DNA from: an uncultured Gammaproteobacteria bacterium
Lineage (GTDB): Bacteria; Patescibacteriota; Patescibacteriia; Magasanikbacterales; UBA922
DNA: 64,000 nt
Direction: 5' to 3'
NCBI GenBank assembly: GCA_964345045.1
Contig: CAYFPM010000001.1
Location: forward strand, 108,215 to 172,214
The notes below the pieces were generated by a model. It worked only from the letters and a program-made list of their open reading frames with translations. It did not search any database and was not told the DNA's origin. This document shows, one piece after another, positions 4,338 through 48,259 of the stretch (positions are counted from its first letter, which is position 1; each line of letters begins with the position of its first letter). The translations under genes were made by a program, and so were the position numbers.

Positions 4338-4757
4338 ATGCCAACAATGAATCAGGTGTTGCGCAAGGGCAGAAAGAAAAAGACTACCAAGTCAAAATCT
4401 CCTGCCATGCAATTCACCTACGACAGTTTGCACCGCAAGAAAACAGACTTGCGTAGAGGTGCTCCATTCAAAAGAGGTGTTTGTATCAAGGTAACAACCA
4501 AAACACCAAAAAAACCTAACTCTGCGTTGCGTAAGGTAGCTCGTGTCAGACTATCTAACGGAACCGAAGTTTGGGCTTATATCCCAGGTGAAGGACATGG
4601 ATTGCAAGAACACTCTGTAGTTCTAATCCGTGGAGGAAAAGTAAAAGACCTTCCAGGTGTAAAATATCATGTGGTTCGCGGTGTGTACGACACAACCGGA
4701 GTCGAGAATCGCAAACGTAGCCGTTCACTATACGGAACTAAGAAACCTAAATCATAA
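4338..4757 (+). CDS. rpsL: 30S ribosomal protein S12
   Basis: [14 protein letters not shown]...[11 protein letters not shown]...[25 protein letters not shown]. Canonical S12. Confidence 0.95.
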
Positions 4758-4843: not shown

Positions 4844-5329
4844 ATGCCAAGAGGAAAAAGAATTCCGAAACGTGTAGTTTCTCCAGATTCAAGATACAAC
4901 AGTGTGCTTGTTTCCAAGTTCATTAATTTTGTAATGGAAAGAGGTAAAAAAACTGTAGCCGAAAAAATAGTGTACGGTGCTTTTGAAAAACTTGCCGAAA
5001 AGAAAAAAGGCGACGCTATTAAACTATTTGAACAAGTATTAGACATAATTAGACCACAAGTAGAGGTACGCTCTCGTAGAGTTGGTGGTGCCAACTACCA
5101 AGTACCTATGCCAGTAGCCAGTCATCGCCAAAACGCTTTGGCTTTTCGTTGGCTAGTAGGTGCTGCCAAAGCCAGAAGTGGCAAAACCATGCAAGACAAA
5201 CTAGCTATGGAAATGATGGATGTACTAGAAGGAACCGGTGGAGCTGTAAAGAAAAAAGAAGACGTCATTCGTATGGCCGAGGCCAACAAAGCCTTTGCCC
5301 ACTTCGCCAGATTTGGTGGCAGAAGATAA
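4844..5329 (+). CDS. rpsG: 30S ribosomal protein S7
   Basis: MPRGKRIPKRVV...VEVRSRRVGGANYQVP...AFAHF. Canonical S7. Confidence 0.95.
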   Translation: MPRGKRIPKRVVSPDSRYNSVLVSKFINFVMERGKKTVAEKIVYGAFEKLAEKKKGDAIKLFEQVLDIIRPQVEVRSRRVGGANYQVPMPVASHRQNALAFRWLVGAAKARSGKTMQDKLAMEMMDVLEGTGGAVKKKEDVIRMAEANKAFAHFARFGGRR

Positions 5330-5427: not shown

Positions 5428-7503
5428 ATGGCTAGAGAATATACCCTAGAAAAAACCCGCAACATCGGGATCATGGCGCATATCGACGCCGGAAAAACTA
5501 CTACCACCGAACGTGTCTTGTTTTATACTGGTAAAAAACACAAAATCGGTGAAACTCATGACGGTGAATCCGACATGGACTGGATGGAACAAGAAAAAGA
5601 GCGTGGTATTACTATTACTTCTGCTGCTACCACTTGTTTCTGGCAAAATAATCGTATCAACATTATCGATACTCCAGGTCACGTAGACTTTACTGTAGAA
5701 GTAGAGCGTTCACTACGTGTACTAGATGGTGCTTGTGCTGTTTTTGATGGTTCACAAGGTGTAGAACCACAAAGTGAAACCGTATGGCGCCAAGCCGACA
5801 AATACAAAGTACCTCGTATTTGTTTTGTAAACAAAATGGACAAAATGGGTGCAGATTTTTATATGAGTCTTAACTCAATTTTGGAACGTTTATCAGACAA
5901 AGCTGTTGCTATCCAACTTCCAATCGGAGCGGAAGGCGAATTTAGCGGTGTAATCGATCTTATCGAAAGAAAAGCTTCTAAATTTGAAGGCAACATGGGG
6001 ATCAATGTAGTAGAAATGGAAATCCCTGCCGACATGAAAGACCAAGTAGAAGAGTACCGTGCCAAAATGCTGGAAAAAGTAGCCGAAGCCGATGAAGAAA
6101 CCATGAATGCTTACCTAGAAAACGGTGACCTAACTACAGAACAAATCAAAGCTGCTATTAGAAAAATGGTAATTGCCGATGAACTTTATCCAGTATTATC
6201 TGGTTCTGCACTTGCCAACATTGGTGTACAAAAGATGCTAGATGCTGTTATCGATTACTTGCCATCTCCATTGGAAGTACCACCGCTAGAAGCAACTGAT
6301 GTAAATGACGAAAACAAAAAAGTAGAAATCAAACCAAGTGATGATGAAGCTTTTACTGCCTTGGCTTTCAAAATTGCTACTGATCCATACGTAGGAAAAT
6401 TGGCTTTTTTCCGTGTTTATTCTGGTTCTGTAAAAGCTGGTACCTATGTAGTAAACACTTCAACCGGTGCCAAAGAACGTATTGGTCGTATTGTTCGTCT
6501 ACATGCCAACAGCCGCGAAGAAGTAGACGAAGTATATGCTGGTGAGATTGCTGCTGCTATTGGTTTGAAATCTACCACTACCGGTAACACTCTTTGTGCC
6601 GAAAATCGTCAAGTAGTTTTGGAAAATATTAGTTTTCCAGAACCGGTTATCCATATTGCTATTGAACCAAACACCAAGCAAGATGCCGAAAAAATGAGTT
6701 TGGCTCTACAAAAATTGGCAGAAGAAGACCCAACCTTCAAGGTTCATACCGACGAAGAAACCATGCAAACTATTATTTCTGGAATGGGGGAACTTCACCT
6801 AGACATTATTGTAGATCGCATGAAACGTGAGTTTGGTGTAGAGGCCAATGTTGGTGCTCCGCAAGTAGCTTACAAAGAAACTATCCGTTCCGGTGCAGAA
6901 GGAGAAGGTAAATATGTAAAACAATCTGGTGGTCGTGGTCAATACGGTCACTGTTGGATCAAATTGGAACCAATGGAAGAAGGTGCAGACTTTGAATTCA
7001 TTGACGAAATCAAAGGTGGTACAATTCCAAAAGAATTTATTGGTCCTATCCAAAAAGGTATTAAAGAAGCTATGAGCAAAGGTATTGTAGCTGGTTACCA
7101 AATGGTAGATATCAAAGCTACAGTATACGATGGTAGTTACCATGATGTAGACTCTAGTGAAGTTGCCTTTAAAATGGCCGGATCTATGGCTTTTCAAGCT
7201 GCTGCCAAAAAAGCAGAACCTGTACTACTAGAACCGATCATGAAAGTAGAAGTAACTACTCCAGAAGAAAACATGGGAGACGTAATTGGAGACTTGTCTT
7301 CCAAACGTGGTCAAGTTCAAGAAATGACAGACCGTGGACAAAGCAAGGTAGTTCGTGCCGAAGTACCTTTGTCAGAAATGTTTGGTTATGTAACCAACCT
7401 ACGTAGTATGACCCAAGGTCGTGCCAGCTCCAACATGGAATTTTCTCACTACGCCGAATGTCCTAAAAACGTTGAGGCGCAGGTAGTAGAAGGTAAAAAG
7501 TAG
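5428..7503 (+). CDS. fusA: Elongation factor G
   Basis: [28 protein letters not shown]-motifs and a full-length EF-G architecture. Confidence 0.95.
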
Positions 7504-7535
7504 AATAAGCAGAGTAAGTAGTAAGCAGAGTAAGT

Positions 7536-7567
7536 AAACCCAGCTCAGAGAGGAGCTGGGTTTTTGG
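7536..7567 (+). terminator. Intrinsic terminator after fusA
   Basis: ACCCAGCTC-AGAGAGG-AGCTGGGT followed by TTTTT. Confidence 0.7.
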
Positions 7568-7674
7568 TTATGTAGTTTGTAAGATTGTGTTTTATTGAAT
7601 TAACTGATATATTGCTTAAGCTGCAATTTTATGTTATGATTTTTTAAATATATAAATTTTAATTATAAACATCT

Positions 7675-10600
7675 ATGTTTTCCAAACGTCTGGCTATCTT
7701 GGCCATTATAGGGGGTTTGGGGGGAGCGTTGCTAGGTTTTCAAGAATTAGCAAATGGTTTCACATTGGATTCTGGCAATACAGATCAAGTGAATCTTAAT
7801 ACCTTAAAATTTGATTCTGGCAAAAGTTCGGATATAACTGTTAACAGTCTTTTTTTGTTGGATAATTCGGAAAATGAAAAAGAAGATGAAAAATCTACTT
7901 TTGATACCAAAACAGAAGAAAAAGATGTAAGTAATTTTAGTATATTAAATTTTAATCAAAAATCTACAGAAACAGTTACTGCCACAGTAGATGTAAGTGA
8001 AAATTTTGCAAAAACAGAAGTGACAGATATTAATATTTTGGAACAAAAAAAAGAAGATGAAAAACAAGATCAAGATGAGGGTAGAGAGGATAGTTTGCTT
8101 ATAAAAACTACTCCAATTACTATTACCCCAATAAAGGTGGAGCCGGTGGAGCCTATAAAAAATATTGATGAGGATACCAAACAAAATGAACTACCAAAAA
8201 AAGAAGATCCAAAGGTAATTTCTGAACAGATTGAGACTAAGATTTCTGAGGAGGAAAAACCTGCCGATGCCACAGGCTCTGGCGCTGTGAAAGAAGAGAA
8301 AAAAAGTATTTTTAATATTTTTTCTCCAAAGGTAGACAAGGTTGATATTGAAGTAGAGTCCAAAAAAGATGCTAAAAAAGTAGAAGTAAAAACTTTGCCA
8401 GAAATAAAAGATACTCGTTTGCAAGTTGATTTTGAAATAGAAAAAAAAGAAGATGGATCTGTAAAAGTGGAAGGCTCTAAAGTAAGAACAAATTTGGAAA
8501 TTGCTATTGATAGTAAAGTAAAAGAATCTAACAAAGAAGATGCCCCAAAAGAAGAACAAGTTAAACCAAAAATACTTTCTCCAATCAAACCAACTCTTAT
8601 CAAAACCAAACAAGATCTTGGAACATATGCTGGAGATATTGCTGCTCGTGACACAGATGTAGAATCTGTAGAAATTGAAGAAGACACAGTAGAAGTGTCT
8701 TACAAAAAACCGGCCCGACTCTTTGGTATTTTCCCAACCAAAATAAAGGAAGACGTGGTTGTAAAAACAGATTCATTGGGTCGACCTGATGTAGAAGTAA
8801 AACGTCCTTGGTGGGCTATTTTCACTAGTGAAAAAGATAGTAAAGAAGAAGTAGCCGAAGATATAGAAAAGAGAGTTGGTTACACAGGTACAGGTGCTAG
8901 CAGCCAAGAATCTTCTGTAAGACTAGCTGGAATTCTTGGAGCCATTGATCGTACTATGAAGATTGGTAGTGACAAAGCTACTGGAATTGATGTGGTCTCT
9001 AGTGTAGAAGAAGGTTTGCCAGATAGAGATGACGTGCCAGAAGAAGGTGTACTTGTAAGTGATTTAGATGTCATGATGCGTCAAGCTTTCTTGGGGGACT
9101 TGTTTAATCGTCCTGGTTCTGGAAGCTCGGCTCATATTTTTATCGATCTGGCTATAGAAGGAACTTTTGGTAATTTTGCTTCGCAACAATTAAGTATTGC
9201 CAGCCGCACAGCCGGGGACAGTGGCGAATTTATTGTCGCTGGTATTGGCAGAGTATTGACCATGTTCAACGAAAGAGGACTTAGCCACCAGCATGATGCC
9301 TTCTTGCGTTCAGCTCTAGTACTAGAAGTCGCTAGAGCTATGAATGGAGACGCAGCTGCCGCAGCCTTTGTAAATCAGTATGCTAGTCAAATGAATAATT
9401 TATTGGCAAACAGTGGTGTGCCACTGACAACTTCTGCCAATGGAAATAGAACTTTGGTAAATTTTGCTGTTTGTTCTGGTGCCAATAGAGCTGGTTGTGT
9501 CGATGTCGCTACTCTACTTAGTTCACTTGGTGATCCTCGCTCACTTTCCAATTTGTGTGATCCAGGTAACATGGTGTTGAACGGAATTATGAATTTGGCT
9601 GGAGACGAAAGATATGGATGTGCTCCACCAACCGGAATGTGTGCTACTACCTTGGAAGGTGGTATTAACAATGGAGAAAACGTAGCTCCAGGATTACCAG
9701 GAATACAGCAACCAGAAAATGCCTTGGGACAATCGGATGTTCCAAATGGGGCACAAGGATTTTTGGAAGACCAAGGTATTACCGGTCAAGATTTGGAAAC
9801 CATCTGTGGAGCTCATGCTGCCGGAGCGCTGGGACTAGGCGGTGGAACACAAGAGTGTATAGAAAATGCAATTTCACAAATGGCCAGACAAGATCTGCTT
9901 GGTGCTGCTGGTATGGCTGGTTGTATGGCCGGAGCCCTAGGTCTAGAGCTAGGAGATGACCCAGCCATCGATAGAGTGATTGATGATGCCCTTAACAGTC
10001 GTGGTTGTGGAGACCTAGCCGCCGATGGAGAAAAGAAAGAAACTCCTCCAAAGGAAGAGAAAAAACCAGATCCTTCGAAAGAAACTGAGGAAAAAACTCC
10101 ACCACCAAAAGATAAAGAAGAACCAAAGAAAGAAGAAAAAGGATTTTTTGGTAAATTGTGGGATGCTGTTTTTGGTGGAGGTAATGATAAAAAACCAGGA
10201 GTAGAATTCCAATATGACAAAGAAGGAAAGTTAATTGGTGCAGAATCTGGAAATACAATAGTAAGACTTAATGAAGACGGTGAAGCAATAGTGGAAATAG
10301 GTGGTCAAAATGTAACTGTCGAAGGAAGCCAAAATGAATTGGAAGCTATATTAGACGCCATCGGAGGTGTTTATGATGGAGAAGGTGTAGGAAACATTGT
10401 AGATTATGATTCTACTGGAGAAATATACATTGGAGCACAAAGAGCCCTATTGAAGTTTAAAAATATTAGAGGTTCTTCGTTAGAGCCAAGCTCTGGTTGT
10501 AGCGAAGCTTTGCAAGCTCTAGAAGCAGCCTACACCCAATGTTCTGGCGACATTATAAACAATGCTGCTGCCGGAGCTGGTGTCCCAGGAGGTTCTCCTG

Positions 10601-11133
10601 CCGAAAGAATCGGACGAACTGCTCCAGGATCTAATCCTTTTGGTGGTAGACCAGGCGAGTATGGTGGCACTGCCGGAGCTACAGATCCAATCACTGCGTG
10701 TATGGAAGCCAATAGTTCTAGAACTCATGGTTCTGGTAACTGGGCCTCCAATGGAGGAGCTTGTGGCTTTATGGTTTGTGCCGATGGTACAGATAGTTGT
10801 TGTCAGGGAGCTGGTTTTGGCAATCAAGCAGCCGGAGAATTGCTTCGTGATTTACGAGATTGTACCGAAGTAATGTGTGTCCCAGGTGAGCCATGTCTTT
10901 GTGCTGGTGAACAAAGTACCGGAGAGTTACCAGAGATACCTATTTTTGGAGATGACGGTGGAGTAAATCCTGTAGCCAACGACAGTATTGCCCCAAACGA
11001 AGGTAGTTCGGCCAGAGGATTTTCTGAAACAGTTGGTAACACCAACTTTACAGGTTCTGTAGGAACTGGCTTTGGTGTGGGTTCTGGATCAAATCCAAGC
11101 CAGGAGCTAGACGGTGATGTAAATAGTAGATAA
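7675..11133 (+). CDS. Very large (1152 aa) predicted surface protein: N-terminal TM/signal, long K/E-rich low-complexity region, Gly/Cys-rich C-terminal region
   Basis: MFSKRLAILAIIGGLGGALLGF hydrophobic N-terminus. About 300 aa of KE-rich repeats. C-terminal half is rich in G, C, A and N with many CxxG/C patterns. Confidence 0.6.
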   Translation: MFSKRLAILAIIGGLGGALLGFQELANGFTLDSGNTDQVNLNTLKFDSGKSSDITVNSLFLLDNSENEKEDEKSTFDTKTEEKDVSNFSILNFNQKSTETVTATVDVSENFAKTEVTDINILEQKKEDEKQDQDEGREDSLLIKTTPITITPIKVEPVEPIKNIDEDTKQNELPKKEDPKVISEQIETKISEEEKPADATGSGAVKEEKKSIFNIFSPKVDKVDIEVESKKDAKKVEVKTLPEIKDTRLQVDFEIEKKEDGSVKVEGSKVRTNLEIAIDSKVKESNKEDAPKEEQVKPKILSPIKPTLIKTKQDLGTYAGDIAARDTDVESVEIEEDTVEVSYKKPARLFGIFPTKIKEDVVVKTDSLGRPDVEVKRPWWAIFTSEKDSKEEVAEDIEKRVGYTGTGASSQESSVRLAGILGAIDRTMKIGSDKATGIDVVSSVEEGLPDRDDVPEEGVLVSDLDVMMRQAFLGDLFNRPGSGSSAHIFIDLAIEGTFGNFASQQLSIASRTAGDSGEFIVAGIGRVLTMFNERGLSHQHDAFLRSALVLEVARAMNGDAAAAAFVNQYASQMNNLLANSGVPLTTSANGNRTLVNFAVCSGANRAGCVDVATLLSSLGDPRSLSNLCDPGNMVLNGIMNLAGDERYGCAPPTGMCATTLEGGINNGENVAPGLPGIQQPENALGQSDVPNGAQGFLEDQGITGQDLETICGAHAAGALGLGGGTQECIENAISQMARQDLLGAAGMAGCMAGALGLELGDDPAIDRVIDDALNSRGCGDLAADGEKKETPPKEEKKPDPSKETEEKTPPPKDKEEPKKEEKGFFGKLWDAVFGGGNDKKPGVEFQYDKEGKLIGAESGNTIVRLNEDGEAIVEIGGQNVTVEGSQNELEAILDAIGGVYDGEGVGNIVDYDSTGEIYIGAQRALLKFKNIRGSSLEPSSGCSEALQALEAAYTQCSGDIINNAAAGAGVPGGSPAERIGRTAPGSNPFGGRPGEYGGTAGATDPITACMEANSSRTHGSGNWASNGGACGFMVCADGTDSCCQGAGFGNQAAGELLRDLRDCTEVMCVPGEPCLCAGEQSTGELPEIPIFGDDGGVNPVANDSIAPNEGSSARGFSETVGNTNFTGSVGTGFGVGSGSNPSQELDGDVNSR

Positions 11134-11155
11134 TTAAATATTAAAGTTTAAGTAT

Positions 11156-11710
11156 ATGGAACATCCAAAAATTATACAGAAAATAAGTAAGCGCAATCTT
11201 TCACTAGCTGGTATTATTGCTGTAGTTGGTTTAGCCTCCCTTATTTTTGGTTTGCAATCCAGCATTGAATTGACCTTTGCCAGGTTCACTGTACCTCCAA
11301 TTTTGTTTGTGATTTTAGGTCTTGTTATTATCTTGGTAGCTATTGTTTGGGGTTTAATTGGTTTGAAATCAGAACATTGCGCAGAATGTAAATCAGAATT
11401 AACCTCTGAACAAGCTAGATTTGAATTTGAGGCTCAAAAAACTGTATTGGAAGCGATAAGTAAAAAGGAAGTCACTCTTCTTACCAGTTTGTCAATGGCC
11501 GAAGACCCGGGGAATGAAATTGAAATTGATTTTAACTATTGTAAAAAGTGTCATAACATTGGACAGGTAGAAGTAAATCGTCGCGAAGAATGGAATCCAG
11601 ACAATTTATTGCCAGAAGAAAATGTAGATAACAAAGATTTTATAAAATCTTTGGGAAAAATTACAGAAGAACAAGAAAAATTAAGAGAAGAAATGGAAGA
11701 TGATGAATAG
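11156..11710 (+). CDS. Membrane protein with two TM helices and a CxxC...CxxC zinc-ribbon-like segment
   Basis: Hydrophobic helices at about 15-70. Motifs CAECK and CKKCH. Acidic C-terminus. Confidence 0.45.
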   Translation: MEHPKIIQKISKRNLSLAGIIAVVGLASLIFGLQSSIELTFARFTVPPILFVILGLVIILVAIVWGLIGLKSEHCAECKSELTSEQARFEFEAQKTVLEAISKKEVTLLTSLSMAEDPGNEIEIDFNYCKKCHNIGQVEVNRREEWNPDNLLPEENVDNKDFIKSLGKITEEQEKLREEMEDDE

Positions 11711-11752
11711 AAAAAATATTAATTTATTTATTTACTTTAATTAATGTAATTT

Positions 11753-12223
11753 ATGAAGAAAATAATTGGAGTTGCTTTGGTAACACTTAGTATGGTTCTT
11801 TTTTTGAGTGGCTGTGCTGTAGGAGAAACAGGTAAACATAATACTTTGGTGGACAAATTAGATGCTGTAGTATCTGCAGACCAGGTATTTTATGGAGAAT
11901 TAGAAAATTATGAACTAGGAGGAGACACTAGTGCTTTAAGAACATCTTTTGATTCTTTCAAAGTTGCTACTGTTGAGTTGGATACTTTTTTTTCAGAGAC
12001 AAAACTTGATAAAGCCCAAGAATCTTTTCAGATAGAGTATGACGTTATTTACAAAAAAGCAGTGGATAGTTATCTATCCAAAGCAGAAGAAGTTGTAGAG
12101 GCTATAGAATCTGGAGTAAATGAGGAAGAGCTTAATGTTTTGTTTGAAGAGATTGTAGAACCAGCTAATGATTTTATAGAAGCAGATAATTCTATGACAG
12201 AGGCTATAAATAAGCAGGCTTAA
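11753..12223 (+). CDS. Putative lipoprotein
   Basis: Signal peptide with lipobox LFLSGC. Confidence 0.5.
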   Translation: MKKIIGVALVTLSMVLFLSGCAVGETGKHNTLVDKLDAVVSADQVFYGELENYELGGDTSALRTSFDSFKVATVELDTFFSETKLDKAQESFQIEYDVIYKKAVDSYLSKAEEVVEAIESGVNEEELNVLFEEIVEPANDFIEADNSMTEAINKQA

Positions 12224-12233
12224 TATACTAAGT

Positions 12234-12266
12234 TAAAAAAAGAACCTTCAAAAGGTTCTTTTTTGT
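12234..12266 (+). terminator. Intrinsic terminator
   Basis: AAAAAAAGAACCTTC-AAAA-GGTTCTTTTTTG. Confidence 0.7.
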
Positions 12267-12330
12267 TTTTTTACAGTTTTTTGTATAAATGCTATTATTA
12301 TACTAATAATTTTTTAAACATCATGAATAT

Positions 12331-15048
12331 ATGATTCAGCTTTTGCGTAAATATACGATTGGTTTTTTGGTTATGGGGGGATTATTTGCTTCATTGTATT
12401 TTTCAACTCAGGTGCAAACAGCATCTTGTTTTGGATTAGAATCTGGCAAACCTTATAAACATCCATTCCATAGTGGTGTTTATTATATTTCAGAAGACTG
12501 TACCAAACGTCCAATAAAAAATTCTAACATATACTTTTCCTATTTCAACAGTTGGAACGATGTGGACACGGTTAGTCAATCATTATTAGATAGTATCCCA
12601 GACAATGAGTTAGGATTTTTACCATGGGGACCAAAAAGAGATTTCAAAAATGGATCACTCTTAAAAACTGTAACTGATCCAAAAGTATATTTGATTCTAA
12701 ATGATAAACGTTATCCAATCGGTAGTGAAACAGCTTTTAGAAATTTGGGTTATTCATTTGCTTGGATAGAAGATGTTGATCAAAGAGTATTAAATAAATA
12801 TTTGGTTGGCCGAGATATTTCGTCGACAAGTGATTATCCAAAAACTTTGGTATTTAAATATGAGGGTAGTCCAAAGGTCTATATATTGGACGATCATAAT
12901 GATAAAGACTTGGGCAAACGTCATGTTATTTCTTATAAAGATTTGTCTCGTGATTACCGGGTAGATAGAATTGCAGTATTACCATCATCTGTAGTTATAA
13001 ATGATTCCCCAGATGGAGAAATTTTAGAAGGAACCAGTTTGAAAGATACAAATAAACAGGTAGAAGAATGTGAAAACTATGCACATGATGGCAGTTGTGA
13101 AAAGGATGAAAAAGAAAGTGAAAATAAAAGTAAAGCGATTTGTGGAAATGGTATAAAAGAAACAGGAGAGTACTGTGATGACGGTAGACTTAATGGTCAA
13201 GCAGGTGAGTGTAATGCACAGTGTAGTGCGTATTTGCCACTTTCTTCAGAACCAAGCGAAGATAGTGATAGTGGATCTATTTGTGGTAACAATATACGAG
13301 AATCAGGAGAAGTATGTGATAGTGGAAGCAACAATGGTAAAGTTGGGTATTGTAATAAAAGTTGTTCAGGCACTATTCCTTCTTCTTCAGTTGTTCTTCC
13401 AACTTTACCACCAGTAGGAACGCCAACCGTCCAATGGACCAAGTTTACCCCGGCGGCCAACACCAATATCATTTATGTAAGTAGCAATGGAAATGACAAG
13501 ACGGGGAAAGTATACTCAGCCGCTGAGGTAGGCAATGACCCATTTAATCCATCTGTTTCTATCCAATCGTTTGCTACTTTGGCAGCTGCCATGAATCAAG
13601 CGCGCAATGATATGCCAGACTGGGTGCTCTTGAAACGTGGTGATACTTTTTATACAGACACTTTGGTTCGTCCACGTAGTGGTCAATCAGCATCGGCAAT
13701 GTCACTCATCGGGAGTTATGGTAGTGGACCGCGTCCTGTTATTATCCCCACTGTAACAGATGTTTCAGTTATCACTGCGCCACCTGGCTTATCCCATGCA
13801 GCCATTACAGACCTCGACATCTATGGTGAACAACACGACCCAACCTCACCAAGCTTTGCTGGTTATGGCACAATGGCTGGAGGCATGCTCATGTTGGCTA
13901 GTACAGGTAATACCAACACAAATATTTTGATTGAAAACAACCGTTTTAGATATCTCGGTGGGGCATTCAATTTTCAAGCCTTTGGTGGCACTTTTACCAA
14001 TGTCACGATCCGTGGCAATGCTATATTGCATTCTTATGGACATACTGGTCATTCGGGGGGTGCATACTTTCAAGAAATCAATGGACTTCTTTTTGAAGGG
14101 AATATTTTTGATCATAATGGTTGGCTTAAGCAAAGCATTCAAGGGAATAATGCGAAGGAAGAGGGACAAGCAACCATTTTTAATCACAATTTATATTTGA
14201 ACGCAGTTCATAATACTACATTGCGTAATAACGCTTTCTTACGGGCTTCGTCAATTGGAGCAAAAGTCCTTTCTGAAAGTGCTACCCAATCAAGTAATGT
14301 TGTGTTTGAAGATAATCTATTTGTAGAAGGAGAAGTGGGGATTAGTTTTGGTGGAAACGACAAAACTGCGCTTCAAAAATATGACACTGTTTCTGTACGG
14401 GATAATGTTTTTATGCATATTGGACGTGCTCGTCCGACCAATCGACATTTGTCTTGGGCGATTACATTAGAGGCTCTCTTTGGTGGGCCAAATGTGATTG
14501 ACGGGAATATTTTTATGCTCCAAGAGGAGTCAAACCTTAGTGGTAATGCCTTTGCCATTCAAGCAACGTTGGCCAATGAACAAACAAGCATAACTAATAA
14601 TATCGTCTACGATTACTATTCAGACAGTGGAACGATGACATTGTACAACAATGCCGGGAACTCTCAGATTACGTTTGCAAATAATGAAGTTCAATCTCCT
14701 GGATATAGCTCTGTACTAATGAACTACGAAGCCGGGCCATATACATACTCTGGCAATAAATACTACTCTACAGCACCAACTAGCGGATGGTTTGTTGATA
14801 AAAGCAAGGGGAATGGGGTGGATCAATCGATGTGGTCTACTCTCTCAGGGGAGTCTAATCCACAGTTCTCGCAAGCATCCTACCCAAATCCAAATGTCCG
14901 TTTAGAATCGTATGTTAGTAGTCAAGGCAAGGGCAGCACATATTCCGATTTTATTAATGTTATGCGTGCTCAAGAACGTGCTAGCTGGAATGCCAATTTT
15001 GAACCATCAGTAATTAATGATTACATTCGAGCTGGATTTGGAAGATAA
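12331..15048 (+). CDS. Secreted 905-aa protein with Cys-rich CGNGI..GExCDDG repeats and a C-terminal parallel beta-helix (pectate-lyase-like) region
   Basis: Signal peptide. CGNGIKETGEYCDDGRLNGQAGECNAQCS and CGNNIRESGEVCDSGSNNGKVGYCNKSCS repeats. Repetitive N-rich I/V-x-N motifs typical of right-handed beta-helix. The 3' half is about 45% GC versus about 35% in the 5' half. Confidence 0.6.
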   Translation: MIQLLRKYTIGFLVMGGLFASLYFSTQVQTASCFGLESGKPYKHPFHSGVYYISEDCTKRPIKNSNIYFSYFNSWNDVDTVSQSLLDSIPDNELGFLPWGPKRDFKNGSLLKTVTDPKVYLILNDKRYPIGSETAFRNLGYSFAWIEDVDQRVLNKYLVGRDISSTSDYPKTLVFKYEGSPKVYILDDHNDKDLGKRHVISYKDLSRDYRVDRIAVLPSSVVINDSPDGEILEGTSLKDTNKQVEECENYAHDGSCEKDEKESENKSKAICGNGIKETGEYCDDGRLNGQAGECNAQCSAYLPLSSEPSEDSDSGSICGNNIRESGEVCDSGSNNGKVGYCNKSCSGTIPSSSVVLPTLPPVGTPTVQWTKFTPAANTNIIYVSSNGNDKTGKVYSAAEVGNDPFNPSVSIQSFATLAAAMNQARNDMPDWVLLKRGDTFYTDTLVRPRSGQSASAMSLIGSYGSGPRPVIIPTVTDVSVITAPPGLSHAAITDLDIYGEQHDPTSPSFAGYGTMAGGMLMLASTGNTNTNILIENNRFRYLGGAFNFQAFGGTFTNVTIRGNAILHSYGHTGHSGGAYFQEINGLLFEGNIFDHNGWLKQSIQGNNAKEEGQATIFNHNLYLNAVHNTTLRNNAFLRASSIGAKVLSESATQSSNVVFEDNLFVEGEVGISFGGNDKTALQKYDTVSVRDNVFMHIGRARPTNRHLSWAITLEALFGGPNVIDGNIFMLQEESNLSGNAFAIQATLANEQTSITNNIVYDYYSDSGTMTLYNNAGNSQITFANNEVQSPGYSSVLMNYEAGPYTYSGNKYYSTAPTSGWFVDKSKGNGVDQSMWSTLSGESNPQFSQASYPNPNVRLESYVSSQGKGSTYSDFINVMRAQERASWNANFEPSVINDYIRAGFGR

Positions 15049-15105
15049 TAGATTTAGCTAGGTTCTAGGTGGTTAGGTAATTAGGGAGGTAAGATAGTTT
15101 AGTCC

Positions 15106-15137
15106 AAAAACATCCGGTAGTTTATCGGATGTTTTTT
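15106..15137 (+). terminator. Intrinsic terminator
   Basis: AAAAACATCCGGTAG-TTTA-TCGGATGTTTTTT. Confidence 0.65.
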
Positions 15138-15188
15138 ATTGACAAAATACATTTTTTGCTATTTACTATTCACTATCTTAACAAGATT

Positions 15189-15935
15189 ATGAAATTCAAT
15201 ATCATCACAATTTTTCCAGATATAATTTCCAATTACGCCGGTGAAACTATTCTTGGTCGTGCTCAAAAAAATAATTTGATAAAAGTAAATCCAATTAACT
15301 TGCGTGACTTTACAGAAGACGCTAGGAAGACAGTTGACGATACTCCCTATGGTGGGGGAGCCGGCATGGTAATGAAATCAGAACCTATTTATAAGGCACT
15401 CAAATCAATCGATGCCATTCCCTTTGCCAAAGTAGATGGACTTTCCAAAGTCAAAAAAGTTTTTGATGGTAGTTTAAAAAAGAAAAAAAAGACTGTCTTA
15501 CTTTCTCCACGTGGCAAACAATTTGACCAACGTATGGCCGAGAAATTTAGTCAGTTAGACGAGTTAACTTTTGTTTGTGGTAGATACGAAGGGGTAGATG
15601 CTCGAGTTTCTCATTATATGGTAGACGAAGAAGTGTCTATAGGGCCATATGTATTGGCTGGTGGAGAACTGGGTGCTTTGGTAATGATAGAGGCTGTGTC
15701 TAGATTAGTTCCAGGAGTTTTGGGTAATAAAGAATCTTTGGCTGAAGAAACATTCATTGCCAATGGTTCATCGCCAATGGTATCCGATGAACCATTGGCT
15801 ACTGGCCATGAACTATTTGTAGAGTACGATCAGTATACAAAACCAGTCGATTTCAAGGGGTGGAAAGTGCCAGATGTACTCCTTTCTGGAGATCACAAAA
15901 AGATAGAAGAATGGAGGAAGGGCAAGGACATATAG
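15189..15935 (+). CDS. trmD: tRNA (guanine37-N1)-methyltransferase
   Basis: MKFNIITIFPD...LGRAQ...DDTPYGGGAGMVMK..., the TrmD SPOUT signature. The start was chosen at the conserved MKF rather than the upstream ORF start. Confidence 0.85.
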   Translation: MKFNIITIFPDIISNYAGETILGRAQKNNLIKVNPINLRDFTEDARKTVDDTPYGGGAGMVMKSEPIYKALKSIDAIPFAKVDGLSKVKKVFDGSLKKKKKTVLLSPRGKQFDQRMAEKFSQLDELTFVCGRYEGVDARVSHYMVDEEVSIGPYVLAGGELGALVMIEAVSRLVPGVLGNKESLAEETFIANGSSPMVSDEPLATGHELFVEYDQYTKPVDFKGWKVPDVLLSGDHKKIEEWRKGKDI

Positions 15936-15966
15936 TTTATCCCCATATCTGTGCAAAACTAGGCAC

Positions 15967-15995
15967 TTGACAACCTTTTGGGGTTCATATATAAT
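15967..15995 (+). promoter_or_regulatory. Consensus sigma70 promoter (TTGACA-N17-TATAAT) driving the 16S rRNA gene
   Basis: TTGACAACCTTTTGGGGTTCATATATAAT. Confidence 0.65.
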
Positions 15996-16328
15996 GGCCA
16001 AGCGTTAAAGAAACATTCCACAATTAAATATTCTGCTAGGCTCTTACAAGAGAGAACCGGTTGAAGAAAGAGTAACCTTGCTTTTTTTGAAAAGTTTCAA
16101 AGAAAGTGTATAAGGTTCCTCTTTTTTCTTTAGAAAAAAGTGGTAGCTCATGACAATCAAATACAAACAACATTCATACTAAGAATGTGACAAAGACAAC
16201 TAGGTGCCAATTTGGCACCAGGTGATAAAAGTCTATTTCTACAAAAAAGAATAAAAATCCTTTTACATTGAGTAAACGGAATAAATTCTCATCGTCGTTG
16301 AGACGATACTAATGTACTTCGGTACATT

Positions 16329-17822
16329 TTCATTGAGAGTTTGATCCTGGCTCAGGATGAACGTTGGCGGCGTGTCTAAGGCATGCAAGTCGAGCGACGG
16401 ACCCACTTCGGTGGGGGACCGAGCGGCAAACGGGTGAGTAACACATTGGTAACCTACCTCCGAGACGAGAATAGCTCATCGAAAGATGAATTAATACTCG
16501 ATAGTCATGAGGGGACGAAAGTCATTCTCATGTAAACCTCCGGGGCTCGGAGAGGGGCCTATGTCTGATTAGCTTGTTGGTAGGGTAAAAGCCTACCAAG
16601 GCGATGATCAGTAGCAGGCGTGAGAGCGTGACCTGCCTCACTGGGACTGAGACACTGCCCAGACTCCTACGGGAGGCTGCAGTCAAGAATATTCCGCAAT
16701 GGACGAAAGTCTGACGGAGCGACGCCGCGTGCAGGAAGACGCCCTTCGGGGTGTAAACTGCTTTTATTAGGGAAGAATTTGTGACGGTACCTAATGAATA
16801 AGAGGTTGCTAACTCTGTGCCAGCAGCAGCGGTAATACAGAGACCTCAAACGTTATCCGGATTTATTGGGCGTAAAGCGTCCGCAGGTTGTTTGGGAAGT
16901 CAGCGGTCAAATCTTCGGGCTTAACTCGAAGACTGCTACTGATACTCCCAGACTAGAGGCTGGAAGAGGCAAGCGGAATTTTCGGTGTAGTCGTAATAAG
17001 CGCTGATATCGAAAAGAACACCAAAGGCGAAGGCAGCTTGCTGGTACATGCCTGACACTCATGGACGAAAGCGTGGGTAGCGAATGGGATTAGATACCCC
17101 AGTAGTCCACGCCCTAAACGATGTCTACTAGGTATTGGAAGTATCGACCCTTTCAGTGCCGTTTAAAAAAGCTAACGCGTTAAGTAGACCGCCTGTGTAG
17201 TACGGCCGCAAGGCTAAAACATAAAGGAATAGACGGGGACCCGCACAAGCGGTGGATCATGCGGTTTAATTCGATGATACGCGGCGAACCTCACCCAGAC
17301 TTGACATGTAACTGCAAGCTCCTAGAAATAGGAGCCGCCTTCGAGGGTGTTACACAGGTGCTGCATGGTTGCCGTCAGCTCGTGCCGTGAGGTGTACCCT
17401 TAAGTGGGGTAACGAGCGCAACCCTCGTCTTGTGTTACATTGTACACAAGAGACTGCCCGGGCAACCGGGAGGAAGGTGAGGACGACGTCAAATCAGCAT
17501 GGCTCTTACGCCTTGGGCGACACACATGATACAATGGCCAGTACAACAGGTTGCCAACCCGCGAGGGGGAGCTAATCCTATAAAGCTGGTCTCAGTTCGG
17601 ATTGCAGGCTGCAACTCGCCTGCATGAAGTTGGAATCGCTAGTAAACGCGCATCAGCCACGGCGCGTTGAATACGTTCTCGGGTCTTGTACTCACCGCCC
17701 GTCACACCACGAAAGCTGGGGGCACCCGAAGGCTCTTTACGGGGACGAAGGTGAAACCAGTGATCAGGGTGAAGTCGTAACAAGGCATCCGTAGCGGAAG
17801 CTGTGGATGGATCACCTCCTTT
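16329..17822 (+). rRNA. rrs: 16S ribosomal RNA (complete, solitary)
   Basis: 5' AGAGTTTGATCCTGGCTCAG. Internal universal blocks GTGCCAGCAGCAGCGGTAATAC and GGATTAGATACCC. 3' end GGATCACCTCCTTT. No 23S follows. Confidence 0.95.
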
Positions 17823-17936
17823 CTGGAGTATATTTGCCGGAAGGCAAATCACAGATTTCGAACTTATGGTTCGGGATTAAATTATCAGAGTAGACCTAAA
17901 TCATCAGTTTCTTTGTCACATTTGTGGTATGAATAA

Positions 17937-17969
17937 AAAACACCAAGCTAAGGTGTTTTTTTGTTATTG
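17937..17969 (+). terminator. Intrinsic terminator about 115 nt after the 16S 3' end
   Basis: AAAAAACACC-AAGCTA-AGGTGTTTTTTTG. Confidence 0.6.
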
Positions 17970-18053
17970 GATTTTATTTAACATCTAACGTTTTCAAGCT
18001 TTTTTGCAGATGTACAATTTGTTTTTGTTATAAAATAGAATAATAACCAGTTG

Positions 18054-18566
18054 TTAATGTGTGATAGTAGTTTTACTTTTTTTTATCGTAGGATTGTCTA
18101 GTACATCGTGGATATAATTAACCAAGCAAACAGTTGTATACAATATAAAAATAATTAGAAGAACAAAAATCAAAGAGAGTGAAAAACCTGCAATGTTTTC
18201 TGTAGAAAAATTGGCAAGACGCTCTGTTGAGAAGAATAACTGAAGAACCTGAAAAAATATTTTAGGAATACTCTGTGCCAAGGATGTCCCCAAAAAAACA
18301 ATCAAAGGGGATATAACTATTATTTTAAATTTATAAGAAGAGAAATGATTTTTTCTAAGATAAAAACTTAAAATGAGAGCAACTGCAATGTAGAATGCAA
18401 TATTTACAGACCATCCCACGAGTCTAAACCAAGATGCTGGTTGAGTGTTGTAACGAAAATAGTTTGTAACTAATGTTATAAGTAAAAAAGATTTACTTAG
18501 ATAAATTAATATATATAATGCGGTTGCTACTAGTTTCTTTTTTGTTATTTTAAAAAAGGATGACAT
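18054..18566 (-). CDS. Hypothetical polytopic membrane protein
   Basis: 170-aa ORF with 4-5 hydrophobic helices. No known motif. Confidence 0.45.
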   Translation of the reverse strand: MSSFFKITKKKLVATALYILIYLSKSFLLITLVTNYFRYNTQPASWFRLVGWSVNIAFYIAVALILSFYLRKNHFSSYKFKIIVISPLIVFLGTSLAQSIPKIFFQVLQLFFSTERLANFSTENIAGFSLSLIFVLLIIFILYTTVCLVNYIHDVLDNPTIKKSKTTITH

Positions 18567-18744
18567 ATATAACGAAACTATGTCGAAAAATACAATAACG
18601 GATGTGTAAAAGTATAATGAAGGGGGTAATTTACGTCAAAAAGGCAGCTGTTTTATAGAGTTTATTAAAGAAATGTTTAAATTATAGCCTATAAAAAAGG
18701 GCATTAGCCCTAGATAAGAAGAAAAAATTTAAATAAAAAAACTC

Positions 18745-18772
18745 TTGACTATTTTTAACCTTCATTTATAAT
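18745..18772 (+). promoter_or_regulatory. sigma70-like promoter (TTGACT-N16-TATAAT)
   Basis: CTTGACTATTTTTAACCTTCATTTATAAT. Same CTTGACTATTT -35 context as the tuf promoter. Confidence 0.5.
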
Positions 18773-18804
18773 TCCTAATCATAAATATTTAATTATTTTT
18801 TGTT

Positions 18805-19335
18805 ATGTCATTAGATCGACTTATCAGATTGTCACAAAAGACAGGGGACAAATTAATCGTACACGATCCAATAGAGGGGAATGACGTAGTTATAATGTCT
18901 GTAGATGCTTACGAATATCTGCTAGATATAGATACCTATGGCGAATTAGATGACAATTTTTCCCCTTGGGACGAAGATTTTATAGAAGATATTAATTTTT
19001 ACGATGGCAAAGAGGCTCGTTCTGATTGGCATAGTACTGCCGATGTTTTAGAAGAAAAAGCCTCTGATTTTAAAGAAGATTCAGATTGGATGGATCTTGC
19101 CGATGATCTGCCAGAAGAAGATTTTTTTGCAAAAGAAGATAACCTTGCCCCTGGTAGTTTGAACTGGGATATAGATACTTGGCAAGAAGATTCTCCAAAT
19201 GAAATGGAAATAAATACAGAAGGCCTGTCCATGGAAAAAGTATCAGAAGATGAAATTGATATAACTAGTTTGGAAAATACTTGGGAAGAGCAAAAACTTT
19301 CTGATGAACCAGTATTTTACGAGGAACCAGTTTAA
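18805..19335 (+). CDS. Highly acidic protein with a Phd/YefM-like N-terminal fold and a 130-aa D/E/W-rich tail
   Basis: N-terminal LIVHDPIEGNDVVIMSVDAYEYLLD resembles antitoxin Phd/YefM. The remainder is D/E-rich with repeated W/F. Confidence 0.45.
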   Translation: MSLDRLIRLSQKTGDKLIVHDPIEGNDVVIMSVDAYEYLLDIDTYGELDDNFSPWDEDFIEDINFYDGKEARSDWHSTADVLEEKASDFKEDSDWMDLADDLPEEDFFAKEDNLAPGSLNWDIDTWQEDSPNEMEINTEGLSMEKVSEDEIDITSLENTWEEQKLSDEPVFYEEPV

Positions 19336-19361
19336 AGTCTTAGATGCTTAATTTATCAAAT

Positions 19362-19390
19362 AAAAAATCTCGACAAAGTCGAGATTTTTT
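19362..19390 (+). terminator. Intrinsic terminator
   Basis: AAAAAATCTCGAC-AAA-GTCGAGATTTTTT. Confidence 0.7.
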
Positions 19391-19461
19391 GTATTTTTAG
19401 CTTAAAAAAGATGTTTTTTAGCTAACCACATTCTATCCCCAATTTATTAATTATGTAGCAC

Positions 19462-19490
19462 TTGACTATTTCCTGTGGATAAGATATAAT
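19462..19490 (+). promoter_or_regulatory. sigma70 promoter for tuf (TTGACT-N17-TATAAT) with a 125-nt structured leader
   Basis: CTTGACTATTTCCTGTGGATAAGATATAAT. The leader contains CCCGC...GCGGG and CCGACCACTCGGGG stems. Confidence 0.55.
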
Positions 19491-19617
19491 CGTGACCACG
19501 TAATAGGTAATAGTTTTTTACCTTAAATTAGTTATTTTATAAATATATTATATTCCCGCTGGATACAAATCTATTCCGACCACTCGGGGTAGTGCGGGCA
19601 ACATTATTCTAAGCCGT

Positions 19618-20808
19618 ATGGCCGATTTTGATCGTTCCAAGGCTCACGTTAATGTGGGTACTATTGGTCACGTAGACCATGGAAAAACAACTACAACAGC
19701 TGCTATCTTGAAGGTAGCTGCCGCTGCTGGTTTGACTGCTCAAACCAAAGACGTAGACGCTATCGACTCTGCTCCAGAAGAGAAGCAACGTGGTATTACC
19801 ATTGCTACTGCTCATGTAGAGTACGAAACTGCCAACAGACACTACGCTCACGTAGACTGTCCTGGTCACGCCGATTATGTAAAAAACATGATCACTGGTG
19901 CTGCCCAAATGGATGGTTCTATCCTTGTAGTATCTGCTGCTGATGGTCCTATGCCTCAGACTCGTGAGCACATTTTGCTTGCTCGTCAAGTAGGTGTACC
20001 TTACATCATCGTATTTTTGAACAAAGTTGATCAAGTATCTGATCCAGAACTTATCGACCTAGTAGAAGAAGAAATTCGTGATCTATTGAAGAAATACGAA
20101 TTCCCAGGAGACGAAACTCCAATTATCCGTGGTTCAGCTCTAAAAGCCTTGGAAAACCCAAGTGACGAAGCTGCTGCTAAACCAATTTTGGACCTATTGA
20201 ACACTTTGGATGAATACATCCCAACCCCAGAACGTGATCTAGACAAAGACTTCCTAATGCCTATCGAAGACGTATTTTCTATCGAAGGTCGTGGTACTGT
20301 AGTAACCGGTCGTGTAGAACGTGGTTCTGTAAAAGTTGGTGAAGAAATCGAAATGGTAGGTATGCAAACCGAAACCATGAAAACCACTGTTACAGGTGTA
20401 GAGATGTTTAACAAATCTCTAGATCAAGCTCAAGCTGGTGACAATGCTGGTGTTCTTCTTCGTGGTACTAAGAAAGAAGAAGTACAACGTGGTATGGTGC
20501 TTTCCAAACCAGGTACTATTACTCCACATACCGAATTCGAAGCTGAAATTTACGCTCTTACCAAAGAAGAAGGTGGACGTCACAAACCATTCTTTACTGG
20601 TTACAAACCTCAGTTTTACATCCGTACAACTGACGTAACTGGTGATGTGACTTTGCCAGAAGGTACAGAGATGGTAATGCCAGGAGACACTGTAAACGGT
20701 AAAGTTAAACTTATCGTTCCAGTAGCTATGGAAGAAAAAATGCGTTTCGCTATCCGTGAAGGTGGACGTACAGTAGGAGCTGGTGTTGTAACTAAAATTA
20801 TAAACTAA
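19618..20808 (+). CDS. tuf: Elongation factor Tu
   Basis: [37 protein letters not shown]. Full length, 396 aa. Confidence 0.95.
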
Positions 20809-20817
20809 ATATTGTGA

Positions 20818-20858
20818 TCCTGCCCCGACCTAGTGTTGGGGCAGGGTTGTTCTTTTTT
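20818..20858 (+). terminator. Intrinsic terminator after tuf
   Basis: CCTGCCCCGACC-TAGTG-TTGGGGCAGG followed by a T-run. Confidence 0.7.
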
Positions 20859-20865
20859 CCAAGTT

Positions 20866-21210
20866 ATGGCTACAAAAACAGATGAAAAAACCAAACAAGA
20901 AGTAGGTCAAAAGATTAGAATCAAAATCTCTGCTTACGATAACAAGATTATCGATAGTGCTACCAAGACCATTATAGAAACCGCAGAGCGTAATAACGCC
21001 AAGGTTGTTGGTCCTGTGCCACTTCCAACCGCTAAGAACAAATTTAGTATCAACCGTTCTACTTTTGTTAGTAAAACTTCTCAAGAACAATACGAGATGC
21101 GTACTCACAAAAGATTGGTGGACATTCTAAATCCATCACCAAGAGCCATTGATGCTCTTATGAACCTAAATTTGCCTAGTGGGGTAGACGTAGAGATCAA
21201 GATGCAATAA
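20866..21210 (+). CDS. rpsJ: 30S ribosomal protein S10
   Basis: [41 protein letters not shown]. The start was set at MATKTD downstream of the terminator hairpin. Confidence 0.9.
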
Positions 21211-21270
21211 GCATTATTGTGGATCAACTCCACGTCCGGTTTCTAAAAATTTTAGTAACAGGATGTGGGG

Positions 21271-21299
21271 TTGACAGGGGATAAGTAATAGGCTATAAT
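21271..21299 (+). promoter_or_regulatory. Consensus sigma70 promoter (TTGACA-N17-TATAAT) internal to the S10 operon, upstream of rplC
   Basis: TTGACAGGGGATAAGTAATAGGCTATAAT. Confidence 0.6.
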
Positions 21300-21557
21300 T
21301 GTGCCACCCTATATTAAATAAAAAAGCCAATAGAGAAATCTATTGCAAAGATCATTGTTTTGCAAGCTAAAAAAGATTCTCCTTTTAGAGAAAAACCTTT
21401 AGTGAGTAAAAAATGAGACGAGGTATTTAAATTGAATATATTAACCGCCATACAAACCATAAAGGTTTTTGGCTAGAAGTTTGGACATTTGCACTTTAGA
21501 ATACGAAATTGCAGGTGTTTGGACTTCTAGTTTTTGTTATGATCCGGATCGGATCCA
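21300..21557 (+). promoter_or_regulatory. About 260-nt untranslated leader with an attenuator-like hairpin + T-run (21474-21540) preceding rplC
   Basis: No ORF. CTAGAAGT...ACTTCTAG stem followed by TTTTTGTT. Additional small hairpins. Confidence 0.4.
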
Positions 21558-48187: not shown

Positions 48188-48259
48188 CCCAGCCTGCGGC
48201 TGATGACTCGTAGGGTCAGAACTCTTTAATTATTCTATTTTGGATTACGTTTTTTATAG

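Follow-up and report, generated by a model that had tools for sequence, protein, structure and literature searches.

Layered gene order and a variable gene slot between fusA and tuf in a relative of Candidatus Magasanikbacteria

The str genes fusA and tuf, which encode the elongation factors EF-G and EF-Tu, lie 12.1 kb apart (5428-7503 and 19618-20808) in a 64-kb stretch of contig CAYFPM010000001.1 (assembly GCA_964345045.1, positions 108,215 to 172,214 of the forward strand; hereafter, the window). The interval between the two genes is likely a layered region and not one insertion, with a variable slot that here holds a cassette of envelope protein genes, among them g905, a beta-helix protein with a predicted role on glycans. 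The locus adds one more case to known types of genomic feature (unlinked rRNA genes, a hot spot of gene turnover and beta-helix surface proteins) and contains two uncharacterised protein families.

Conserved gene order around the slot

The genes rpsL (4338-4757), rpsG (4844-5329), fusA and tuf follow the canonical order on the plus strand, and rpsJ and rplC come after tuf. In most bacteria, fusA and tuf are adjacent. Here, eight genes, of which one is on the minus strand, and at least five terminator-like hairpins separate them (Table 1). An earlier note on this DNA, made from the sequence alone, had described the str cluster as split by a block with giant open reading frames (ORFs), small membrane protein and lipoprotein ORFs, trmD and a 16S rRNA gene without a 23S. 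The ORF map and the family and RNA scans located each of these where the note had placed it. The note had also given fusA and tuf a terminator and a promoter each. Terminator-like hairpins indeed follow both genes and tuf has a promoter-like site, but fusA has none of its own and lies downstream of rpsL and rpsG, whose promoter-like site is at 4045-4073.

About 45 Patescibacteria loci (numbered with the prefix L) were compared for what follows fusA. The interval can be read as three layers. The first, which would be Patescibacteria-wide, consists of a176, a gene for an acidic protein, and a structured leader RNA directly upstream of tuf. The second, which would belong to a Magasanikbacteria subclade, consists of trmD and a self-contained, unlinked 16S unit fixed between fusA and a176. 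The third would be confined to a species group and is a plastic slot directly after fusA with fast gene turnover, occupied here by a 7.5-kb cassette. Among the near relatives, fusA is followed by a 130-bp gap, trmD, 16S, a176 and tuf in L010, and by trmD and 16S in L014. In L011, trmD follows fusA, and 16S comes after a further 8.5 kb. A 1616-amino acid (aa) gene lies between fusA and trmD in L008, where the contig ends before any 16S, and a 196-aa gene precedes trmD and 16S in L088. In distant Patescibacteria (L015-L048), 0.5-5.5 kb separate fusA from a176-tuf, and the site holds neither trmD nor 16S. Since the near relatives share the placement and the distant ones lack it, trmD and 16S appear to have been fixed there in the ancestor of one subclade. 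In L007, the gene next to fusA (12100-12705) looks like that of ribosomal protein S16, which usually shares an operon with trmD.

The earlier note had interpreted the whole block as a 12-kb insertion. This is only partly right: the cassette (7675-15048) is variable, but the backbone of a176, trmD and 16S has an order that is shared by relatives; the same gene order in relatives is thus true of the backbone and untrue of the cassette. A single recent insertion, such as a genomic island that split a contiguous str operon, would account for a gap of 12.1 kb bounded by terminator-like hairpins, for the shorter gaps of the more distant Patescibacteria and for the textbook adjacency of fusA and tuf elsewhere. 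However, a176 precedes tuf in 14 other loci, trmD and 16S lie between fusA and tuf in at least six relatives, some of them without giant genes, and the guanine-cytosine content at third codon positions (GC3) is native, with no flanking repeats, integrase or adjacent tRNA. Because a176, trmD and 16S keep their place in relatives, a single 12-kb insertion is unsupported, and we consider it very unlikely. The split str operon would instead be an old, conserved rearrangement, which matters when synteny or rRNA linkage is used to judge the quality of metagenome-assembled genomes (MAGs).

Organism and assembly

The EF-G of the window shares 74-81% of its residues with that of MAGs carrying the label Candidatus Magasanikbacteria or Patescibacteria; for other Patescibacteria, the identity is 65-73%. 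Judged from these matches, the organism is a relative of Candidatus Magasanikbacteria with a reduced genome, in agreement with the reduced-genome bacterium supposed in the earlier note. Many MAGs titled "uncultured Gammaproteobacteria bacterium" (L006, L007, L015, L016, L020 and others) have EF-G and synteny of the Patescibacteria type, and the Gammaproteobacteria labels of those records appear to be wrong.

The gene order was identical in independent assemblies (ENA and Logan) of three runs of one project (ERR2281800, ERR2281802 and ERR2281803), including a 117-kb contig, and a 621-kb NCBI contig also carries a protein of the window. Misassembly is common at rRNA genes and at low-complexity K/E-rich regions. 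Both occur in the locus, and a chimeric contig could have been joined at either. The agreement between the three runs and the 117-kb and 621-kb contigs speaks against such an artefact, as do the backbone common to relatives and the g1152-g905-trmD junctions of the cassette, which are shared with a contig of another study (L086). As three runs independently assemble the same order, we regard misassembly as extremely unlikely.

The variable slot and its cassette

The variable part of the interval is limited to the cassette after fusA, which comprises g1152, g184, g156 and g905. The slot is empty in L010, L014 and L011. In the window and in L006, L008, L013 and L007, it encodes giant proteins that have an anchor at the N-terminus. 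None of the slot proteins of relatives is homologous to g1152 or g905, and most are unrelated to each other, as in the case of the 1616-aa protein of L008 and the 1581-aa protein of L006. They carry Ig-like, CarboxypepD_reg, TIG, CARDB or T4SS-pilin domains, and type-IV-pilin-like genes fill the slot in L020, L034 and L035. In the EF-G tree, even sister genomes differ in the slot, L013 having a giant gene and L010 none. In L006, the slot ORFs at 20191-21450 have N-termini that resemble, by eye only, components of conjugation or type IV secretion systems (PrgI-like and VirB4-like).

The cassette itself has a patchy distribution: apart from the window, L086 is the only relative that has it. The gene order is the same in this 5.3-kb contig, where a g1152 homolog, of which the C-terminus is covered (66% identity), is followed directly by a g905 ortholog (63%) and then by trmD (75%), with g184 and g156 missing. 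Between the window and L086, the proportions of non-synonymous (pN) and synonymous (pS) differences per site were 0.205 and 0.646 for g1152, 0.22 and 0.75 for g905, and 0.15 and 0.79 for trmD. The pN/pS ratio of the cassette was about 0.3, with synonymous sites saturated. Because pN is far below a saturated pS, in figures resembling those of trmD, g1152 and g905 are under purifying selection. The cassette would be transcribed as two units, g1152-g184-g156 and g905, and its products exported to the envelope.

The composition of the cassette is native. GC3 of its four genes is 0.20-0.29, compared with 0.30 in fusA, 0.29 in tuf and similar values in ribosomal protein genes (norm of the window, 0.19-0.38). 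The cassette also lacks the marks of a mobile element: no integrase or transposase was found among the Pfam, NCBIfam and PHROG matches, repeat searches around the cassette revealed no flanking repeats, and no tRNA gene adjoins it, the nearest being at 48259. A mobile element was therefore rejected; of the traits of a horizontally acquired island, the cassette has the patchy presence among close relatives.

Plasticity zones are regions in which conserved core genes frame a changing set of accessory genes. The slot is like such chromosomal hot spots in that its flanks are conserved (fusA on one side; trmD, 16S, a176 and tuf on the other) and its content differs between close relatives. Unlike typical hot spots, it is embedded in the genome's most conserved cluster of translation genes, has native composition and is associated with neither an integrase nor a tRNA gene. 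The likeness is further limited by the weak statistical enrichment of the slot for envelope genes. The fixed address right after fusA offers a place to seek comparable genes in other genomes.

The beta-helix protein g905

g905 consists of a signal peptide, an N-domain (aa 30-240; nucleotides (nt) 12418-13050), Cys-rich acidic repeats (about aa 265-350) and a beta-helix (aa 369-905; nt 13435-15045). The AlphaFold2 model had a mean predicted local distance difference test score (pLDDT) of 80.5, with both folded domains at about 90. Residues 369-905 have a right-handed beta-helix fold, matching many beta-helix structures with a Foldseek probability of 1.0, and this part dominated the Foldseek matches of the protein. 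The best matches were GH136 lacto-N-biosidases (E = 6.6e-10), followed by PfbA, AlgE4, PL6 lyases and phage tailspikes, and no meaningful sequence match was found in the PDB. Like LnbX (GH136, 5gqc), the HK620 and CBA120 TSP3 tailspikes, AlgE4, PL6 lyases and PfbA, g905 is a secreted protein of the same fold with an asparagine ladder and a polar row. Unlike these proteins, with which it shares 9-15% identity, it has no sequence-level family match, and it carries a Patescibacteria-specific N-domain and Cys-rich repeats. An assignment of g905 as a GH136 lacto-N-biosidase was rejected, since the likeness is structural only, at 13-15% identity, the catalytic Asp pair could not be placed in g905 and no neighbouring gene resembles the dedicated chaperone of that family.

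Across 22 homologs (25-33% identical), E535, R561, D594, H619 and Y622 are conserved on successive coils of the helix together with an asparagine ladder. In the comparison with L086, the beta-helix is the best-conserved part of the protein (76% identity, against 59% for the N-domain). The conserved row of residues and the strong conservation of the beta-helix favour a predicted glycan-binding groove with catalytic potential. g905 might instead be an adhesin whose beta-helix has no catalytic function, as in pneumococcal PfbA. The structural matches include PfbA, at ranks 7-8, and g905 has no sequence match to a catalytic family of CAZy or Pfam. On the other hand, a charged and aromatic row kept across 22 homologs, a beta-helix better conserved than the N-domain and glycosidases as the top structural matches all point away from an adhesin, and we hold this alternative to be rather doubtful. 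In the preferred reading of a glycan-binding groove, g905 would be exported and held at the surface by its N-domain, and the groove would bind or cleave polysaccharide.

The N-domain was modelled by AlphaFold at a pLDDT above 90 as three beta-beta-beta-alpha repeats. A domain 40-50% identical to it occurs, N- or C-terminally, in at least 33 other Patescibacteria proteins, which also hold Ig-like, fn3, BNR or peptidoglycan-binding domains. No PDB sequence match was obtained with a profile of the domain, and a Pfam scan of 20 homologs gave inconsistent results. From its distribution, the N-domain is probably an envelope-tethering module. In L087 (7018-15109), a related metagenome contig, three tandem genes for proteins of 973, 888 and 812 aa each start with this domain and form an array of surface-protein paralogs. 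Between the N-domain and the beta-helix, aa 265-350 contain two CGNG...C..G...G.C...C repeats. They reached 14.2 bits (E = 0.028) against TIGR02232 (myxo_disulf_rpt), below the cut-off of 20.8, and homologs aligned over this stretch carry PF13948 (DUF4215).

The nearest non-orthologous homologs of the beta-helix lack the N-domain; one lies in a polysaccharide-synthesis neighbourhood and others have type IX secretion tails. As the homologs group separately by protein part, g905 is a domain mosaic. The earlier note had described the beta-helix half as higher in GC and raised a separate affinity for it. This half is not unusually GC-rich: its GC3 (0.35) is in the normal range of the window, and the low value is that of the N-terminal half (0.20). 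A foreign origin of the beta-helix half on these grounds was accordingly rejected. A separate affinity finds no backing in base composition, but domain shuffling, with the closest homologs lacking the N-domain, backs it weakly.

The cysteine-rich protein g1152

g1152 has a signal or anchor segment (aa 5-26), an acidic N-terminal third, which is probably disordered, a "PWW" domain (about aa 300-400) and two Cys-rich helical regions (about aa 400-780 and 940-1100). The protein matched nothing in Pfam, NCBIfam or PHROG, and a profile of it gave no meaningful sequence match in the PDB. A search with the full-length protein found only g1152 itself and was uninformative, because low-complexity words filled the candidate list; a query of aa 395-1152 worked. 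An exhaustive profile search of 1.84 billion representative sequences uncovered a family of four full-length members, g1152 included, and two partial relatives (E < 1e-30). A metagenome scan for more g1152 loci returned only an already-known contig. All 20 cysteines of g1152 are invariant among homologs at 41-45% identity, and the homologs have clear signal peptides, which indicates that g1152 is exported and disulfide-stabilised. In the cassette, it would act as an exported, disulfide-stabilised partner protein. The proposal in the earlier note that the giant proteins are extracytoplasmic is thus supported by signal-like N-terminal segments in both, by the invariant cysteines of g1152 and by the beta-helix of g905.

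Two further observations concern parts of g1152. The module at about aa 300-400 (nt 8560-8874), with the pattern ...VxVxYxxPAKLFGFIPVxxxExxxV...PWWAF, is common to about 1100 proteins. The best matches of this module of about 100 aa are mostly proteins of 200-290 aa, with a signal-like start in all four that were read, and the module has no Pfam family. P0067 (638 aa) and P0068 (720 aa) are distant partial relatives of the Cys-rich C-terminal two-thirds. P0068 has a lipoprotein-like signal and the amino acid make-up of a GC-rich organism. The Cys-rich module may therefore occur outside Patescibacteria.

Possible role of the cassette proteins

Several results weigh against the reading of the interval as layers with a slot for envelope proteins and a glycan-directed g905. 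First, the g1152 homolog of L088 lies 1.7 kb upstream of rpsL and hence outside the slot, so that the g1152 family is tied to the neighbourhood and not to one position. Second, the slot is only weakly enriched in envelope genes, which account for 31 of its 75 genes and for 42 of 134 genes in the upstream flanks (Fisher's exact test: p = 0.17). By residues, the envelope share is 61% in the slot and 31% in the flanks, a difference owed to a handful of giant genes. A statistical enrichment was rejected on the gene counts. Third, many of the related contigs stop soon after fusA, and the slot is sampled in part. Fourth, promoter-like sites are no commoner in the window than in shuffled sequence. 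Finally, the AlphaFold2 model of g1152, built on a 4-sequence alignment, was unusable (pLDDT 32.5) and was kept out of the fold search, and g905 showed neither a CAZy-family enzymatic motif nor a Pfam match at E <= 0.1, Beta_helix (PF13229) included, although several of its homologs at 25-30% identity do carry PF13229.

g1152 and g905 may plausibly have a role in host attachment, as suggested in the earlier note, given the modelled fold and the presumed lifestyle of the organism. It is also conceivable that the cassette proteins serve the bacterium's own envelope, for instance by forming a surface layer or by remodelling or turning over the wall, with no link to a host. Such a function would suit the N-domain of g905, which is common to many Patescibacteria surface proteins with varied partners, as a generic anchor would be, and it would suit the co-location of a lipoprotein and a membrane protein, as well as the polysaccharide-biosynthesis neighbourhoods of the closest beta-helix homologs. 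However, housekeeping would predict conservation throughout the clade, whereas the g1152 family has only about 6 members in 1.84 billion sequences, and the difference in the slot between sister genomes is a pattern commoner in interaction or antigenic proteins. The fast turnover of the slot in sister genomes and the rarity of g1152, as far as sequences can tell, would fit a role in interaction better than one in housekeeping. We regard an own-envelope role as credible but less likely than not.

A large part of bacterial diversity belongs to the Patescibacteria, most of which cannot be cultured, and how they recognise and hold other cells is little understood outside a few Saccharibacteria. Like the attachment factors of Saccharibacteria episymbionts (e.g. 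bioRxiv 10.1101/2024.11.25.624915), the cassette proteins are predicted to be exported by a Patescibacterium, and pilin-like genes occupy the slot in some relatives. Unlike those factors, the cassette proteins are homologous neither to pilins nor to any attachment factor that has been tested. The locus offers candidates with clear domain limits, namely a tailspike-like beta-helix protein, an undescribed, shared surface domain of about 200 aa and a rare protein with 20 cysteines.

trmD and the solitary 16S rRNA gene

TrmD was identified by NF000648 (263.7 bits; cut-off 220), TIGR00088 (245; cut-off 195) and PF01746 (181.9 bits). Its start is most likely at 15189, because relatives align from that Met. 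The 16S rRNA gene (16329-17822) is full-length, covering model positions 1-1533 of RF00177 with 1427.7 bits, and the Rfam scan detected no 23S or 5S rRNA in the whole window. Two 25-nt inverted repeat arms (16172-16196 and 17910-17934), 88% complementary, flank the gene like a processing stem; they came to light in the repeat searches around the cassette. The promoter-like site upstream matches the consensus at 12 of 12 positions (15967-15995), and the promoter block is conserved in the window, L010, L014 and L088. In the same four genomes, a DnaA-box-like TTATCC[C/A]CA is kept about 22 nt upstream of the -35 hexamer. The sole perfect TTATCCACA of the window lies at 19474-19482 on the minus strand, in the spacer of the tuf promoter-like site. 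DnaA boxes were rejected as a meaningful signal, their count in the window being at chance level.

Unlinked rRNA genes have been reported for clades including Patescibacteria (Brewer et al., bioRxiv 10.1101/705046). The 16S gene here is like the unlinked 16S genes of Patescibacteria and other reduced genomes in having no 23S or 5S nearby and in having a promoter, processing stem and terminator of its own. It departs from that general case in lying between fusA and tuf, beside trmD, at a position kept in one Magasanikbacteria subclade. In a non-exhaustive search of the literature, we found no description of this placement.

a176 and the leader RNA of tuf

Homologs of a176 lie directly upstream of tuf in 14 loci of several orders (L010, L015, L017, L019, L020, L021, L028, L033, L034, L035, L040, L041, L043 and L045). 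a176 is thus an old companion of tuf and not an insert. The protein has an N-terminal motif, KTGDRxIV...VMxLDxYExL, and a long acidic tail with EDxxYLEP at the C-terminus. PF02604 (Phd/YefM) was matched by 10 of 15 family members (best E = 9e-6), the copy of the window giving no match, and the alignment profile matched YefM antitoxins of the PDB weakly (E = 0.12-0.4). The N-terminal part of about 50 residues resembles the fold of Phd/YefM type II antitoxins. Unlike these antitoxins, a176 has no toxin partner, a long acidic tail and a position before tuf that is fixed across orders. No toxin gene adjoins it; downstream of it come a terminator and tuf, and upstream of it lies a membrane ORF or 16S. 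It is known that Doc, the classical partner of Phd, targets EF-Tu, which makes the position of a176 before tuf curious.

In the leader element of tuf (19553-19600), a P1 helix (CCCGC/GCGGG) is combined with a UGGAU motif and an extended hairpin; the element ends 19 nt before the start codon. It matched covariance model R2 with 64.6 bits. In an alignment of four sequences of this form (A11), 98% of cells were paired and 5 of 13 pairs had changed on both sides. The folding-energy z-score of the leader in the window is unremarkable (-0.76), so the structure is supported by covariation and not by folding energy. Elements were located at 16073-16122 in L010, 15481-15530 in L019, 14294-14346 in L021 and 12698-12741 in L047. 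Across Patescibacteria, the element lies 13-23 nt before the start codon and combines a P1 helix and a GC-rich hairpin with a YUGG(A/U)U motif. A sister form with two hairpins occurs in 14 other tuf leaders (e.g. L028 13164-13216 and L034 13798-13845). Its model, built from eight sequences, was run on 863 kb of Patescibacteria loci, where its 14 matches at E < 0.01 each lay immediately before tuf, and on 596 kb of mostly non-Patescibacteria fusA loci, where it gave none. The leader had no match in Rfam 15 at the gathering score, nor at E <= 10 in the window and L034. From its conservation upstream of tuf, the element may serve in the autoregulation of EF-Tu or of the tuf-S10 genes. To researchers of RNA and translation, the two conserved neighbours of tuf, a176 and the covarying leader, may be of more interest than the cassette.

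In a bolder reading, which we consider unlikely, the slot would be a dedicated swap site for cell-contact genes in Patescibacteria, g1152 and g905 would form a host-glycan module of one Magasanikbacteria species group, and a176 and the tuf leader would form an as yet undescribed control unit for EF-Tu synthesis in the phylum. Each lineage would then install giant adhesin-like or depolymerase-like proteins, or pilins, beside its most stable and highly expressed gene neighbourhood.

Other features of the window

Promoters and terminators in Table 1 were called by consensus pattern match only. Among the seven ORFs of the interval, only trmD was matched in the Pfam, NCBIfam and PHROG scans. g184 and g156 had no family match above the cut-offs of Pfam and NCBIfam, and no homolog of m170 was found in the related loci, this ORF being seen in the genome of the window alone.

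Table 1. Features between fusA and tuf and at the borders of the interval (positions in the window).
Feature	Position	Strand	Description
fusA (EF-G)	5428..7503	+	691-aa ORF, Pfam EF-G domains; last gene of the rpsL-rpsG-fusA unit
Terminator-like hairpin after fusA	7536..7563	+	11-bp stem with 6 GC pairs, then T run
g1152	7675..11133	+	1152-aa ORF, secreted, disulfide-rich, rare family
g184	11156..11710	+	184-aa membrane protein, two transmembrane segments, CxxC...CxxC tail (hydropathy, translation)
g156	11753..12223	+	156-aa predicted lipoprotein, signal ends in lipobox LSGC (translation, hydropathy)
Terminator-like hairpin (12236-12264) and promoter-like site (12270-12298)	12236..12298	+	between g156 and g905
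g905	12331..15048	+	905-aa secreted modular protein
Terminator-like hairpin after g905	15107-15138		read by eye
trmD (tRNA m1G37 methyltransferase)	15189..15935	+	NCBIfam, Pfam
16S promoter region	15937..15995	+	DnaA-box-like TTATCCCCA (15937-15945) and TTGACA-17-TATAAT (15967-15995)
16S precursor	16172..17934	+	inverted repeat arms around mature 16S rRNA (16329-17822)
Terminator-like hairpin after 16S	17935..17961	+	pattern match
m170	18054..18566	-	170-aa multi-pass membrane ORF, 4-5 hydrophobic segments
a176	18805..19335	+	176-aa acidic Phd/YefM-like protein
Terminator-like hairpin after a176	19360-19392		pattern match
tuf promoter-like site	19462..19490	+	TTGACT-17-TATAAT, 11/12 consensus matches
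Structured RNA element, tuf 5' leader	19553..19600	+	covariance model R2, covariation
tuf (EF-Tu)	19618..20808	+	396-aa ORF, Pfam EF-Tu domains
Terminator-like hairpin after tuf	20814-20850		pattern match

Between the stop codon of fusA and its terminator-like hairpin, the 16-nt tandem repeat TAAGCAGAGTAAGTAG is present in 1.9 copies (7506-7536, plus strand). Five GC-rich ORFs are scattered among the ribosomal and housekeeping genes of the window, at 3215-3934 (minus), 32485-33456 (minus), 36892-38025 (minus), 42199-42690 (plus) and 62562-63140 (plus). Their GC content is 49-58% and their GC3 0.50-0.71, against about 38% and 0.28 for the genome. They had no Pfam, PHROG or Rfam match and no mutual similarity, and a homolog of the ORF at 3215-3934 was sought in the related loci and not found. 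Three of the five have a signal-peptide-like or lipoprotein-like N-terminus. These ORFs may encode recently acquired secreted proteins. Downstream of tuf, a perfect TTGACA-17-TATAAT is located between rpsJ and rplC (21271-21299, plus strand). Together with the hairpin between tuf and rpsJ, this promoter-like site suggests that the S10 cluster is also divided into separate units.

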